From: Escherichia coli
GTDB taxonomy: Bacteria > Pseudomonadota > Gammaproteobacteria > Enterobacterales > Enterobacteriaceae
DNA: 64,000 nt
Direction: 5' to 3' (one strand)
Assembly: GCF_048403405.1 (NCBI RefSeq)
Contig: NZ_CP183129.1
The translations under genes were made by a program, and so were the position numbers. Position 1 is the first letter of the stretch. The number at the start of each line of letters is the position of its first letter. Under the pieces are notes generated by a model, which was not told where the DNA came from, did not search any database, and saw only the letters and a list, made by a program, of their open reading frames with translations. Shown in pieces: positions 54,130-58,321 of this stretch.

Positions 54130-54257
54130 ATTATTCACGGTAGATATAAAAACGTCACAATACACCGCGCTGTTTTTACTTACTATCAATCGTTTCTAAA
54201 CAAGTTTTCATCAGGTATTCTACTGATGACTTGTTATGGAAGTGTTAAGGTAAAAAG

Positions 54258-54593
54258 ATGGGGCTGGTAATCAAAGCCGCGCTCGGTGCGCTGGTAGTGC
54301 TGTTGATTGGTGTTTTAGCAAAAACGAAAAATTATTATATCGCCGGGCTGATCCCACTTTTCCCGACCTTTGCGCTCATCGCGCATTATATTGTTGCCAG
54401 CGAACGCGGCATTGAAGCCTTACGCGCAACCATCATTTTTAGCATGTGGTCGATTATTCCCTATTTTGTTTACCTGGCGTCGCTGTGGTATTTCACCGGA
54501 ATGATGCGCTTGCCCGCCGCTTTTGTTGGTTCTGTTGCGTGTTGGGGGATAAGCGCATGGGTGTTGATTATATGCTGGATAAAGCTGCATTAA
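54258..54593 (+). CDS. ydgC: GlpM-family inner membrane protein
   Basis: 111-aa hydrophobic ORF. Confidence 0.85.
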   Translation: MGLVIKAALGALVVLLIGVLAKTKNYYIAGLIPLFPTFALIAHYIVASERGIEALRATIIFSMWSIIPYFVYLASLWYFTGMMRLPAAFVGSVACWGISAWVLIICWIKLH

Positions 54594-55312
54594 CGCAGAT
54601 GACGACCGCCATCAAGAGGGAAACTGCGTCCGGTGACAAAGCAGCTGGTAAGTAAGTAATCGACCAGGTCGATCACTTCTTTCTCGCCAGGCGCGGTTTT
54701 CATCAGTGATTTATTCAGCGCCTGTTGTCGATATTCGGCATCATCATGTTCATTAAACAGGATCAGCGATGGCGCAATAGAATTCACTTTCACTTCCGGT
54801 GCCAGCTTGCGGGCAAACGAGCGGGTCATATTATCCAGTGCCGCTTTGCTTGCAGCATACGCAACATGTTTGTCGCTACCGCGCTCCACCACATAATCGG
54901 TAAAGTGAATGATATCGCTGGCGGCGTGTCCGTGCCCACGCAGTAATCTTTCCAGCGCATGGTTGAGCAGGTATGGGGTATTAACGTGGATCTGCATCAT
55001 GCAAGCCAGTACGTCGGCCAGTGGTGTACCTGGTTTTTCTGCCATCCACGCACTGGCGTTATGCAAAATAGCACGCAGACCATGGGTGCTTTTTAGTACT
55101 TCATCGGCAAACGCCATCACACCGTCGTTGGTCGAAAAATCAGCCTGAATACACTGCGCACCTGCGTTAATCAGTCCATCAATGGCTGGATAGTGCGTCC
55201 GATAGCTGATAATCACCGGTTGCTTTTGATTAATGAAATGCCATGCGAGGGCGAGGCCGATGCGACGACCACCGCCAGTAATTAATATTGGCAAGGGCTG
55301 GGCTTTACCCAT
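54590..55312 (-). CDS. folM: Dihydromonapterin/dihydrofolate reductase (SDR)
   Basis: 240-aa ORF; TGGGRRIG Rossmann motif. Confidence 0.9.
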   Translation of the reverse strand: MGKAQPLPILITGGGRRIGLALAWHFINQKQPVIISYRTHYPAIDGLINAGAQCIQADFSTNDGVMAFADEVLKSTHGLRAILHNASAWMAEKPGTPLADVLACMMQIHVNTPYLLNHALERLLRGHGHAASDIIHFTDYVVERGSDKHVAYAASKAALDNMTRSFARKLAPEVKVNSIAPSLILFNEHDDAEYRQQALNKSLMKTAPGEKEVIDLVDYLLTSCFVTGRSFPLDGGRHLR

Positions 55313-55348
55313 CGTTATCTCCTTTGCTATCCAACGATGGGATGAACG

Positions 55349-56731
55349 TTATCCCACCAGCATCCAGGTCGCCGGAACTGAGGCAATTAACAGCATGCCA
55401 ATCAGCACCATTTCCTGACGATTCAGTACATTATCATGGGTATGCGTTTTACGCGCGTACAGGAAAACCAGCAGCCCCGGTGCATACAGAACAACGGATA
55501 ACAGCAAGTGCATTGGACCAGAGGCGTACAATAACCATAAGCCATAAATGCAGGCACCGACACCTACCGCTTTATGCAGTGGACGGGTTGCGATTTTCAG
55601 CAAGAACGCGCCGACCAGGAAATAGGGCACCAGAATCATTTCTGAGGCGATGGTCAGCAACGTGTTGTAATCGGAACCGGTCAGCCAGATGAGTACCAGA
55701 CAAATTTGCACGCAGATGTTGGTCAACCACAGTGAGGCGGATGGCGCAGCTTGTGTGTTCTGGCGCGCAAAAATGCGCGGGAATGCTTTATGAGTGGCGG
55801 CCAGGAACGGAACTTCTGCCGCCATGATGGTCCAGCTTAAGTACGCGCCGCAAACGGAAACGATTAAACCGGCAGCGATGATGATTTCGCCCCATGGTCC
55901 CATCATTTCCACCATCAGACCGGCCATTGACGGGTTACGAATTTCAGCCAGTTCAGGACGTGCCACCACACCCAACGAAAGCAGCGTTACCAGCAAGTAA
56001 ACGCCCAGAGCGGAGAGAACCGCCAGCAGTGTCGCTTTGCCAACATCACGTTTATTACGCGCACGCGCAGAAACAACCACGGCACCTTCCACACCAATGA
56101 AAACCCACAGGGTGATCAGCATGGTGTTTTTCACCTGTTCCCAAACGGGTACGCCAAGTGCAAGTCCGGTGAAGTCGAGCTTGAAGGTATCCAGTTTGAA
56201 CATCATCATCGCCAACACAACAAACAGACCCAGCGGCAACAGTTTTGCCAGTGTTGCCACCAGGTTAATGCTGGCAGCGGTTTGCACCCCGCGCAGGATC
56301 AAAAAGTGAACAATCCACAATAAAGCCGATGCACCGACGATCGATTGCCAGGTATTACCATCGCCAAACAGGCGCAATTCCGGCGTGTCCGTAAAAAAGC
56401 TTAACGCGGAAAAAACGATCACCAGATAGGAGACGTTGGCGATGACCGCGCACAGCCAGTATCCCCATGCGGAACAAAAGCCGATTAGCTCGCCAAACCC
56501 TTCGCGGGCATAGGTAAAGATACCGCCGTCAAGTTCGGGACGAATGCGCGTGAGGATCAGCATGGCAAAGGCCAGCAATAAAATGCCAGCGCCAGTAATG
56601 CCCCAGCCGATGAGCAGTGCTGCCGGGCTGGCAACTGCTGCCATATTTTGCGGCAGACTGAAAACACCCGCGCCCAGCATTGAGCTTAATACCAGCGCGG
56701 TGAGTGCGCTCAGTCCCAGTTTCTTTTCCAT
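55349..56731 (-). CDS. ydgI: APC-family arginine:ornithine antiporter-like transporter
   Basis: 460-aa polytopic ORF. Confidence 0.85.
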   Translation of the reverse strand: MEKKLGLSALTALVLSSMLGAGVFSLPQNMAAVASPAALLIGWGITGAGILLLAFAMLILTRIRPELDGGIFTYAREGFGELIGFCSAWGYWLCAVIANVSYLVIVFSALSFFTDTPELRLFGDGNTWQSIVGASALLWIVHFLILRGVQTAASINLVATLAKLLPLGLFVVLAMMMFKLDTFKLDFTGLALGVPVWEQVKNTMLITLWVFIGVEGAVVVSARARNKRDVGKATLLAVLSALGVYLLVTLLSLGVVARPELAEIRNPSMAGLMVEMMGPWGEIIIAAGLIVSVCGAYLSWTIMAAEVPFLAATHKAFPRIFARQNTQAAPSASLWLTNICVQICLVLIWLTGSDYNTLLTIASEMILVPYFLVGAFLLKIATRPLHKAVGVGACIYGLWLLYASGPMHLLLSVVLYAPGLLVFLYARKTHTHDNVLNRQEMVLIGMLLIASVPATWMLVG

Positions 56732-56877
56732 CGATATCCAGTGATTAAAACGTGATAAGAAGAATAAATATTAGGGCAAAACGCATAAAAATGGAGTTTG
56801 CCACTGAAGCGCGGGATTTTACGAAGAGATGTGTCTGCATGCAATGGTCGCGGGGAAATTTGTGACTAAAAATGCGA

Positions 56878-56898
56878 AAGGCGGCATCAAGCCGCCTT
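56878..56898 (-). terminator. ydgH terminator AAGGCGGC-ATCAA-GCCGCCTT with U-rich tail
   Basis: Perfect 8-bp stem. Confidence 0.6.
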
Positions 56899-56916
56899 AT
56901 AGGAGTAACTGAATAG

Positions 56917-57861
56917 TTATTTATACAGATCTGCGCTGACGGTCAGGTTATTACCACGTTCCTGCCACTGGCGGGTGATGTGGTAATATTTAGCACCTTT
57001 CTTCGCGGCACGTTTCGCAACCTGATAGGAGACTTCAGTCATGTTGCCGTAGTTGCCAGAGAATTTGATGCTGTCGAACGGGACCATCATCGCTGCGGTC
57101 GCTTTGTTCAGTTCTTCGACTTTAGTGCCGTCAGGAAGCGTGACAGTGTAACGCCCGCCTTTTGATGACTGGGTTTCAAAGAAGCGACCGACTTCAGAGC
57201 TTGGTGATGCGGTAGTCGCAACACCCGGAATCTCAACTTTCTTCGCGGCTTCGCCACCGGCAGCCAGAGCTGCACGTCCTGCTTCGGAATCTGCCGGGAT
57301 CACATCCGGGCTCTGGACGATACGTTTCTTCGCATCTTTTTTATAGATGAATGCAGTAATACGCTGGTTGCCGCCCTGGTTGGCATCGATTTGACGAACG
57401 ATGTAGAAAGAGTAGGCACCTTTCGCTTTTGCCGCTTTGGTGATGGCATCATTGACTTCTGGCTGGCTACGATAGAAGCCCTGGACGGTGACCGTGTCAA
57501 ACGGTTCAATCAGAACAGCCTGATCTTTCGGCAGTTCGACAACACCGTTAATTACGCGATTACTTGTTTCTTCTGCTTTTTCAGCATCGGCTTTATAGAG
57601 GTCAGCGACCACACGCCAGTTACCGCTGTTACCAAAATCAGAAGTGTCGACAACATAAAAAGAGGCGGCACCTTCTTTATCTGCGCGACGAGAAACGGCT
57701 TTCACCGCTTCGCCAATAGCATTAAAACGACCGGTAACCACTACACGGTCAAAAGGTTTAACCGCTGCCGCTTGCTCCGGTGTCAGTTCTGTTGCTGCGT
57801 TAACGGAGAATGCCGTAGCAGAAAGCAGTGCCGACGCCAGGAGGGTGTTCTTAAGCTTCAT
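56917..57861 (-). CDS. ydgH: DUF1471 (YdgH/BhsA/McbA) triple-repeat periplasmic protein
   Basis: 314-aa ORF with signal peptide and three internal repeats. Confidence 0.85.
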   Translation of the reverse strand: MKLKNTLLASALLSATAFSVNAATELTPEQAAAVKPFDRVVVTGRFNAIGEAVKAVSRRADKEGAASFYVVDTSDFGNSGNWRVVADLYKADAEKAEETSNRVINGVVELPKDQAVLIEPFDTVTVQGFYRSQPEVNDAITKAAKAKGAYSFYIVRQIDANQGGNQRITAFIYKKDAKKRIVQSPDVIPADSEAGRAALAAGGEAAKKVEIPGVATTASPSSEVGRFFETQSSKGGRYTVTLPDGTKVEELNKATAAMMVPFDSIKFSGNYGNMTEVSYQVAKRAAKKGAKYYHITRQWQERGNNLTVSADLYK

Positions 57862-58321
57862 AAAAATAATCCTTCGCCTTGCGCAAACCAGGTACTGGTA
57901 TTGTTATTAACGAGAAACGTGGCTGATTATTGCATTTAAACGGTGTAACTGTCTGCGTCATTTTTCATATCACATTCCTTAAGCCAATTTTAATCCTGCT
58001 CAAATGACCGTCTATGCTTAAAAAACAGCCGTATCAGCATCAATACTACTGAAGCAACTGAATTGTATAAGTTAATTTAATGTTAAGTAGTGATTCGTGC
58101 CGGGGCGATGTCTCGTTTTACCTGACCGTCGAAGACAATTATCAGTCTTTATCCAACGTTCTAAGGTGTTTATCCCACTATCACGGCTGAATCGTTAATA
58201 TTTTGCGAGTTCACGCCGAAATACTGATTTTTGGCGCTAGATCACAGGCATAATTTTCAGTACGTTATAGGGCGTTTGTTACTAATTTATTTTAACGGAG
58301 TAACATTTAGCTCGTACATGA

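Follow-up and report, generated by a model that had tools for sequence, protein, structure and literature searches.

The ArcD-like transporter YdgI of Escherichia coli: absence of arc linkage and a candidate role in cationic amino acid transport

The ydgI gene of Escherichia coli appears to encode a cationic amino acid transporter or exchanger that operates independently of the arginine deiminase (ADI) pathway and is expressed from its own promoter of the stringent type, with possible modulation by ArgR; we assign this reading a probability of about 0.6. YdgI is a 12-helix secondary transporter of the APC fold and the APA family, representing an Enterobacterales-specific, vertically inherited branch that stands beside the true ArcD arginine/ornithine exchangers. 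The protein would bind a cationic amino acid in an ArcD/AdiC-like pocket, with L-arginine as the best guess and ornithine or lysine as possible substrates, and would transport it through an alternating-access mechanism, acting as an exchanger or providing uptake of low capacity, without being a component of the ADI pathway. Transcription, which would be coupled to growth, is predicted to start at a conserved sigma-70 promoter with a GC-rich discriminator of the stringent type and may be modulated by ArgR, and in the core Enterobacteriaceae the ydgI transcript probably runs on into folM. The analysis establishes the gene, its fold and family, its conservation, the lack of arc linkage and the existence of an accessory arc islet that encodes a separate transporter; the kind of substrate, the mode of exchange and the regulatory scheme are inferred from the conservation of the pocket and from regulatory hints.

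The gene belongs to the core genome of E. coli and is among those that lack an assigned function; it has been hit repeatedly when Salmonella, uropathogenic E. coli (UPEC) and Klebsiella were screened for fitness genes. The substrate of YdgI, once known, would fill a gap in the models of enteric amino acid transport and would also correct the automatic label “arginine:ornithine antiporter”, which is still being propagated. Both ydgI and its orphan status were already known, and the present analysis adds nothing new in kind.

The ydgI gene and the family of its product

The analysed DNA, referred to here as the window, is a 64-kb stretch of the E. coli chromosome. It contains an intact open reading frame with an ATG start that corresponds to E. 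coli ydgI and is named ydgI, “amino acid permease”, in RefSeq. The gene and its two neighbours are as follows.

55349..56731, minus strand: ydgI coding sequence, 460 aa, APC-fold transporter of the APA family, ArcD-like branch (open reading frame, RefSeq, TIGR00905, AlphaFold2 model, dN/dS)
54590..55312, minus strand: folM, dihydromonapterin reductase, downstream gene and probable operon partner (NF005066, 414 bits against a cutoff of 249; RefSeq)
56917..57861, minus strand: ydgH, DUF1471 family, upstream neighbour on the same strand (NF040471, 560 bits against a cutoff of 350)

The DNA of ydgI is 100% identical to that of E. coli strain 4621 and five more complete genomes, and over positions 54200-58300 the identity with strain 4621 (NZ_CP103479.1) and with five further complete genomes is likewise 100%. 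Of the 5426 complete E. coli genomes, 5423 contain the 4.1-kb ydgC-folM-ydgI-ydgH region. Comparison with E. albertii, Citrobacter and Enterobacter yields dN/dS values of 0.01-0.04 for ydgI, indicating strong purifying selection, and ydgI is therefore a real, functional gene.

The product matches the Pfam family AA_permease_2 (PF13520) over residues 5-446 with 271 bits against a cutoff of 27 (E 1.9e-80), and the NCBIfam model of basic amino acid/polyamine antiporters, TIGR00905, with 613.2 bits against a cutoff of 409. The more specific models score below their cutoffs: the arginine-ornithine antiporter equivalog TIGR03810 gives 507.1 bits against 591, the AdiC model NF007929 139.7 against 574, PotE 129 against 409, CadB 86 against 585, and the two histidine-histamine models 333 against 725 and 117 against 750. 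An AlphaFold2 model of YdgI, built on a 69-sequence alignment, has a pLDDT of 91.2 and a pTM of 0.90 and can be superimposed on solved APC transporters, showing the twelve-helix APC fold. The best Foldseek matches among solved structures are those of AdiC (TM 0.79-0.87 over the AdiC entries and 0.83-0.87 for the top match, rmsd ~3.1 A), followed by BasC, GkApcT/CAT and ApcT. The description of YdgI in the first-pass annotation, which was made from the sequence without database searches, as a 460-aa, APC-family antiporter-like protein is thus borne out by the reading frame, by the PF13520 and TIGR00905 matches and by the APC fold of the model.

Gene contexts of YdgI homologs and the accessory arc islet

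Orthologs with at least 88% identity to YdgI are found in Citrobacter, Salmonella, Enterobacter and Klebsiella. Among the full-length representatives of a protein library clustered at 50% identity, P0123 (51%) and P0127 (48%) come closest to YdgI, followed by a broad group at 40-44%. P0127, with a TIGR03810 score of 590.7, is encoded inside an operon for ADI, OTC, ArcD and carbamate kinase. The term “ArcD-like”, by which YdgI had initially been described, is supported by this 48%-identical relative as a statement of resemblance and fails as a statement of membership, given the TIGR03810 score below the cutoff; YdgI belongs to the ArcD-like branch of the APA family by resemblance, not by ArcD membership. 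The other representatives demonstrate how this score relates to gene context. P0130 (592.8) adjoins an ADI gene. P0131 reaches 540, below the cutoff, yet is part of a complete arc cluster that also contains an ArgR gene and another permease paralog, so the cutoff is conservative. P0123, P0129 and P0132 are orphans with no arc context, and orphan homologs from Vibrio and Photobacterium score 561-568, above the arc-embedded P0131. The TIGR03810 cutoff separates arc-linked from orphan proteins poorly, and genomic context is the better discriminator.

In the neighbor-joining (NJ) tree, the enterobacterial YdgI clade receives 200/200 support. Nearest to it are P0129 and then P0123 together with a clade of permeases linked to methyltransferase genes, and because both of these joins have a bootstrap of ~40%, no firm sister-group claim is made for the methyltransferase-linked clade and YdgI. 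A broader YdgI-like clade that includes the Vibrio and Photobacterium proteins has 63% support, and the arc-embedded proteins fall outside it.

A tblastn search of the 64-kb window with ADI, OTC, carbamate kinase and the proteins of the E. coli arc islet (E<=1e-3) returned no arc enzyme. A homolog scan employing one genome per species yielded 80 loci, with 55-99% identity to YdgI, that span Escherichia, all major Enterobacterales, Vibrio, Photobacterium, Aeromonas, Pseudoalteromonas and Psychrobacter. In none of these 80 loci was ADI, OTC or carbamate kinase detected within 10 kb of the homolog with either of two independent probe sets; as a control of sensitivity, a 34%-identical ADI was detected elsewhere. 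The initial observation that no arcABC genes are located nearby, hence, holds for the entire window and for the homolog loci alike.

Published work reports an ADI islet of ~5 kb, STM4463-4467, that every sequenced Salmonella genome and uropathogenic E. coli carry, that other E. coli lack, and that encodes its own arginine-ornithine antiporter. Among the 5426 complete E. coli genomes, the arc cluster is found in 917, with ~360 records of the plasmid-type allele and 558 of a chromosomal allele that is ~77% identical to the plasmid type, and arcA is carried by 239 E. coli plasmids. Both on an IncF plasmid and in the chromosome of UPEC 536, the gene order is arcA-arcC-argF-(YfcC family protein)-argR-like, and in UPEC 536 the islet is located between argI/yjgK and pyrLBI. 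In strain 4621, for which the chromosome was compared, this canonical site, between argI and pyrB, contains no arc islet and shows the K-12-like arrangement argI-yjgL-tabA-bdcRA-yjgH-pyrLBI.

The transporter of the islet, of the STM4464 type, belongs to PF03606 (the DcuC/YfcC family), is unrelated to the family of YdgI and has no BLAST-detectable similarity to it. This protein, encoded inside the arc islet, is described in the literature as the islet's arginine-ornithine antiporter, the role that the first-pass annotation had considered for YdgI, the gene of which is never adjacent to arcABC in the 80 loci. We assume that the islet transporter resembles ArcE, which has been characterised in S. 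pneumoniae. The ydgI gene does not follow the distribution of the ADI genes: 5423 of the 5426 genomes have the ydgI region, but only 917 have the arc cluster. Since the arc cluster is accessory and self-sufficient, with its own unrelated exchanger, arginine/ornithine exchange by YdgI coupled to a distal arc locus, the scenario named at the outset as one that would overturn the orphan status, is unlikely.

The immediate neighbours of ydgI had been given as folM and the DUF1471 gene ydgH, and position, NCBIfam models and RefSeq agree on this. Neither gene points to a substrate, in line with the initial view that the substrate pair is not implied by the context. Almost every one of the 66 enterobacterial loci has ydgH directly upstream of the ydgI homolog, and the order pntA (divergent), ydgH, ydgI is almost universal within Enterobacterales. 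The position of folM is more variable: the gap between ydgI and folM is 36-66 bp throughout, and only in, the core Enterobacteriaceae, folM lies 0.6-1.8 kb from ydgI in Serratia, Hafnia and Edwardsiella, and the homolog locus scan found no folM at the ydgI locus in Kosakonia, Yersinia, Pantoea, Erwinia, Proteus, Providencia and Photorhabdus, all of which keep ydgI. A link to FolM as a general explanation of YdgI is rejected, the adjacency being lineage-specific.

Expression signals around ydgI

The intergenic region between ydgH and ydgI and the spacer between ydgI and folM contain the following elements.

56868..56898, minus strand: intrinsic terminator of ydgH, 8-bp stem with 6 GC pairs, then a T-run (terminator scan and sequence)
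56816..56844, minus strand: predicted sigma-70 promoter of ydgI, -35 TTGCAT (56844-56839), 17-nt spacer, -10 TAAAAT (56821-56816) (footprint)
56809..56815, minus strand: GC-rich discriminator CCCGCGC directly after the -10 hexamer (conserved in 13 genera)
56759..56797, no strand assigned: AT-rich element in the 5' UTR with two ARG-box-like 18-mers 3 bp apart, candidate ArgR operator (conservation)
55313..55348, minus strand: ydgI-folM spacer, 36 bp, with the Shine-Dalgarno sequence AAGGAG (55324-55319) (sequence)

The terminator hairpin of ydgH is conserved in most genera of the intergenic alignment, and given this strong terminator, also delimited as 56898-56878, which separates the transcription of ydgH from that of ydgI, ydgI needs a promoter of its own. 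The predicted promoter, with 8 of 12 matches, is below the threshold of a generic sigma-70 scan and was identified by phylogenetic footprinting: in the ydgH-ydgI intergenic alignment, the pattern TTGCA...17...GTAAAAT is invariant or nearly so across 13 enterobacterial genera. A GC-rich discriminator is an established hallmark of promoters that are sensitive to ppGpp/DksA, that is, subject to stringent control, and the predicted ydgI promoter appears to be of this type. In a 2026 analysis, ydgI has been included in the ArgR regulon defined by binding sites, and its expression has been found to correlate with the ppGpp and translation iModulons, a correlation with which the GC-rich discriminator agrees.

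Downstream of the promoter, the alignment shows conservation of two AT-rich blocks, CCATTTTTATGCG and AAATAATTATTCT, among the genera. Read as a pair of ARG boxes in the 18+3+18 layout, they have 5+5 mismatches to the consensus, and a 64-kb sequence is expected to contain ~2.1 pairs of this quality, so that the element, judged by sequence alone, is no rarer than chance; a scan of the window with the single ARG-box consensus gave 7 matches against 9 expected, which is not significant. The element is accordingly listed here as a weak candidate for an ArgR operator in the ydgI 5' UTR. In an RNA-seq study, ydgI was down together with argABCD and artJ. An Rfam scan of the conserved 5' UTR detected no Rfam family, and RNAalifold found no conserved RNA structure there beyond the ydgH terminator.

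The terminator scan predicted no terminator between ydgI and folM, and a spacer of 36 bp without a terminator implies that the two genes are probably co-transcribed; a paper on PdhR lists a transcription unit “ydgI-folM”. A search for a sigma-54 promoter near folM, prompted by a gSELEX listing, produced a best match at only 9 of the 11 specified positions.

The substrate pocket and alternative readings of YdgI function

Among solved structures, AdiC of E. coli and Salmonella (PDB 3L1L, 3OB6, 5J4N) is the best match to YdgI in both sequence and fold, although the identity is only 26-27%. The experimentally defined substrate and gating residues of AdiC were mapped onto YdgI. Residues Y93, N101, W202, I205, E208 and W293 of AdiC correspond to Y91, N99, W209, I212, E215 and W300 of YdgI, and this set is kept in 17/17 enterobacterial YdgI sequences. 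The AdiC residues S26, S357, M104 and Y74 are replaced in YdgI by A21, A362, Y102 and F72, respectively; the changes of S357 to A and of M104 to Y are also found in the arc-embedded ArcDs, and Y74 is the pH-sensor residue of AdiC. The adjacent arginine decarboxylase gene that would be expected of an AdiC is likewise missing from the ydgI neighbourhood.

The ArcD proteins (P. aeruginosa ArcD, L. lactis ArcD1 and ArcD2; TIGR03810) share with YdgI the APA family and the ArcD-like branch, and the arc-embedded members are 41-48% identical to it. Their pocket matches that of YdgI at the AdiC-equivalent positions N101, W202, I205, E208, W293, A357 and Y104. They differ from YdgI by about ten pocket-lining substitutions that are specific to the enterobacterial clade, namely S16, A21, F72, C94, V96, A98, L208, Y297, S299 and M303. 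Because the ArcD/AdiC cation-binding pocket is kept, a basic amino acid appears to be the likeliest substrate; the reading of YdgI as part of the ADI pathway is unlikely, and the pocket remains suggestive of a basic amino acid.

If the resemblance to ArcD is taken at face value, YdgI would be a bona fide ArcD that takes up arginine and releases ornithine for a distal arginine deiminase locus. This would account for the 48% identity to an arc-embedded ArcD and for the ArcD-like pocket; the arc islet does exist in the chromosomes of UPEC, Nissle and ST131 strains and on IncF plasmids, and the cutoff that YdgI misses is conservative, P0131 being found in an arc cluster at 540 bits. The distribution of the genes nevertheless makes this role very unlikely, as a universal ydgI region (5423/5426) is set against an accessory arc cluster (917/5426) which brings its own DcuC/YfcC-type transporter and an ArgR-like regulator, a window-identical strain has no islet at the canonical site, and 0/80 homolog loci are linked to arc genes. 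A different function is suggested by Aeromonas, Pseudoalteromonas and Psychrobacter, where in 6/6 loci a homolog with 55-58% identity to YdgI is encoded immediately downstream of a gene of the PF02574 homocysteine S-methyltransferase family, at spacings from a 4-bp overlap up to a 25-bp gap. This MHT2/arcD pairing was described in 2011 as a predicted unit of the MetJ regulon, analogous to mmuP-mmuM (PMC3228920). The MHT2-associated permeases score, like YdgI, higher with TIGR00905 than with TIGR03810, have the TM1 motif SSM(V/L)GAG in common with it and are the nearest non-enterobacterial group to it in the NJ tree, and YdgI could likewise import S-methylmethionine or another cationic methyl donor. 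A function of the S-methylmethionine type is plausible for the methyltransferase-linked clade itself. The pocket of this clade and of P0123 is, however, remodelled (N99 to V, I212 to T, M303 to Y/F), whereas YdgI keeps N99, I212 and M303, so that the function is not simply transferable, and the grouping in the tree has a bootstrap of only ~40%. In two of these six loci, one from Aeromonas and one from Pseudoalteromonas, the methyltransferase gene is preceded by three MetJ half-boxes in tandem, which served as positive controls of a MetJ-box scan; the scan detected no metbox of at least 11/16 upstream of E. coli ydgI or ydgH and no MetJ boxes upstream of the Serratia, Proteus, Vibrio and Photobacterium homologs; with the controls working, the empty result at ydgI and ydgH argues against a methionine-regulon function. 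No methyltransferase gene adjoins ydgI in any enterobacterial locus scanned, and YdgI, lacking the operonic PF02574 gene, the MetJ boxes and the altered pocket, is extremely unlikely to be a methyl donor permease.

A 2025 study in which ydgI emerged as a multicopy suppressor of defective threonine uptake detected weak uptake of L-threonine from a multicopy ydgI plasmid at 800 uM substrate, the sole activity measured so far. Instead of basic amino acids, YdgI could chiefly transport or exchange neutral ones such as threonine or alanine, or it could be an exchanger or exporter of broad specificity; several pocket-lining residues unlike those of the arc-embedded ArcDs and the good fold matches with BasC/asc-type neutral amino acid exchangers speak for this. 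The authors of that study, however, called the threonine uptake non-physiological, observed no phenotype of a ydgI deletion and stated that the physiological function of YdgI is not established; with the cation-binding set of AdiC and ArcD (Asn, Trp, Glu) fully conserved, a mainly neutral or broad specificity is unlikely. The tight adjacency of ydgI and folM across the core Enterobacteriaceae, the 36-bp spacer without a terminator and the listing of ydgI-folM as a transcription unit could also be taken to mean that YdgI is functionally coupled to FolM, for example by carrying a pterin or a similar metabolite into or out of the cell. Against this stands the displacement of folM, or its absence from the locus, in the Enterobacterales genera named above, which retain ydgI. 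We know of no APA-family member that transports pterins, and the proposal is scarcely credible.

The cationic amino acid reading preferred here has its own counterweights, namely the TIGR03810 score (507 against 591), the ten pocket differences, the chance-level ARG-box-like element and a ydgI mutant of Proteus mirabilis, which had no arginine-dependent phenotype. That the only activity measured for YdgI is weak threonine uptake counts against it as well. The searchable literature yielded no assay of YdgI with arginine, ornithine or lysine as transported substrate, and none of the electroneutral, energy-independent arginine/ornithine exchange expected of an ArcD.

A more far-reaching version, which we consider possible but doubtful, is that YdgI founds an ADI-independent, Enterobacterales-specific ArcD-like branch that would have been re-purposed for the housekeeping transport of arginine, ornithine or lysine as cationic amino acids, driven by a ppGpp-sensitive promoter and trimmed by ArgR. 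If this were true, YdgI would fill the place of a “missing” secondary transporter for arginine in enteric bacteria, expressed along with the translation machinery, and the ArcD-like branch would have diversified three ways, into the exchangers of arc operons, the permeases of the methionine regulon and YdgI.

Tn-seq/TraDIS screens have listed ydgI among the genes for fitness or capsule, namely in Salmonella exposed to egg white, in UPEC during bloodstream infection and in two Klebsiella strains. Given the likely ydgI-folM operon, these phenotypes may reflect polar effects on folM, from which any contribution of ydgI must be separated. In the Klebsiella screens, argR also scored.

Predicted promoter of ydgI and the ydgI-folM interval

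Two putative regulatory sequences upstream of or inside ydgI lie on the minus strand of the window:
56809-56844 (-), ydgI promoter with discriminator (TTGCAT, 17 bp, TAAAAT, followed by the GC-rich CCCGCGC), assigned on the basis of conservation
55698-55683 (-), sigma-54-like sequence TGGTACTCATCTGGCT, within the 3' portion of ydgI

Both the TTGCAT-17 bp-TAAAAT promoter and the CCCGCGC discriminator are invariant across 13 enterobacterial genera, which suggests that this amino-acid transporter gene would be subject to stringent, growth-rate control. The sequence TGGTACTCATCTGGCT is a weak sigma-54-like match (9 of the 11 specified positions), and a gSELEX study lists a site for RpoN in the ydgI-folM interval. 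In Serratia, Hafnia and Edwardsiella, the ydgI homolog and folM are set 0.6-1.8 kb apart by additional sequence, found in the following comparison loci:
L038:11387-13240, L041:11390-12578, L042:11387-11987 and L047:11387-12517, extra DNA between the ydgI homolog and folM

Methyltransferase-linked permeases

In Aeromonas, Pseudoalteromonas and Psychrobacter, a YdgI-like permease gene is closely joined to a gene of the homocysteine S-methyltransferase family:
L083:9042-11395, L084:9046-11320, L085:9022-11323, L086:9040-11317, L087:3411-5688 and L088:9013-11326, pairs of a PF02574 gene and a YdgI-like permease gene

Such a methyltransferase/permease unit has been predicted previously as “MHT2/arcD” (PMC3228920). 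The methyltransferase-family gene of these loci belongs to PF02574 and scores below the MmuM equivalog cutoff; in Aeromonas and Pseudoalteromonas, three tandem MetJ half-boxes are located 5' of the pair. The pocket of the linked permease is altered (N to V, I to T and M to Y/F), and S-methylmethionine or another cationic methyl donor would be a plausible candidate substrate.

A divergent YdgI-like gene, an arc cluster and accessory islands

Beyond these pairs, the following loci were recorded in other genomes or outside the window:
L094:8001-9311, P0129, a divergent YdgI-like gene (42% identity)
L096:1-8003, arginine deiminase (arc) cluster with two ArcD-like permease paralogs
L090:6989-12231, plasmid arginine deiminase islet, IncF plasmid pCREC-629_1
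L091:9001-14255, chromosomal arginine deiminase islet, UPEC 536
L092, strain 4621 record 4490000-4544571, large island adjoining a tRNA-Leu gene

P0129, which clusters weakly with the enterobacterial clade, is kept amid housekeeping genes on a contig of roughly 600 kb that looks like that of a reduced-genome symbiont. Besides the tandem permease paralogs, the L096 cluster contains an ArgR gene and a gene for an enzyme of the PALP family. One of the two permeases, P0131, falls below the NCBIfam arginine-ornithine cutoff although it is set in an arc cluster.

Two alleles of the arginine deiminase islet occur in E. coli. They share about 77% identity across arcA-arcC, and between them they are present in 917 of 5426 complete genomes. 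The chromosomal allele (558 records) is inserted between argI/yjgK and pyrL, and the other (about 360 records, with 303 plasmid placements) resides mostly on IncF plasmids. The tRNA-Leu island of strain 4621, which is identical to the window in the ydgI region, carries BREX-1, type I restriction-modification, a SIR2-family gene and toxin-antitoxin genes.
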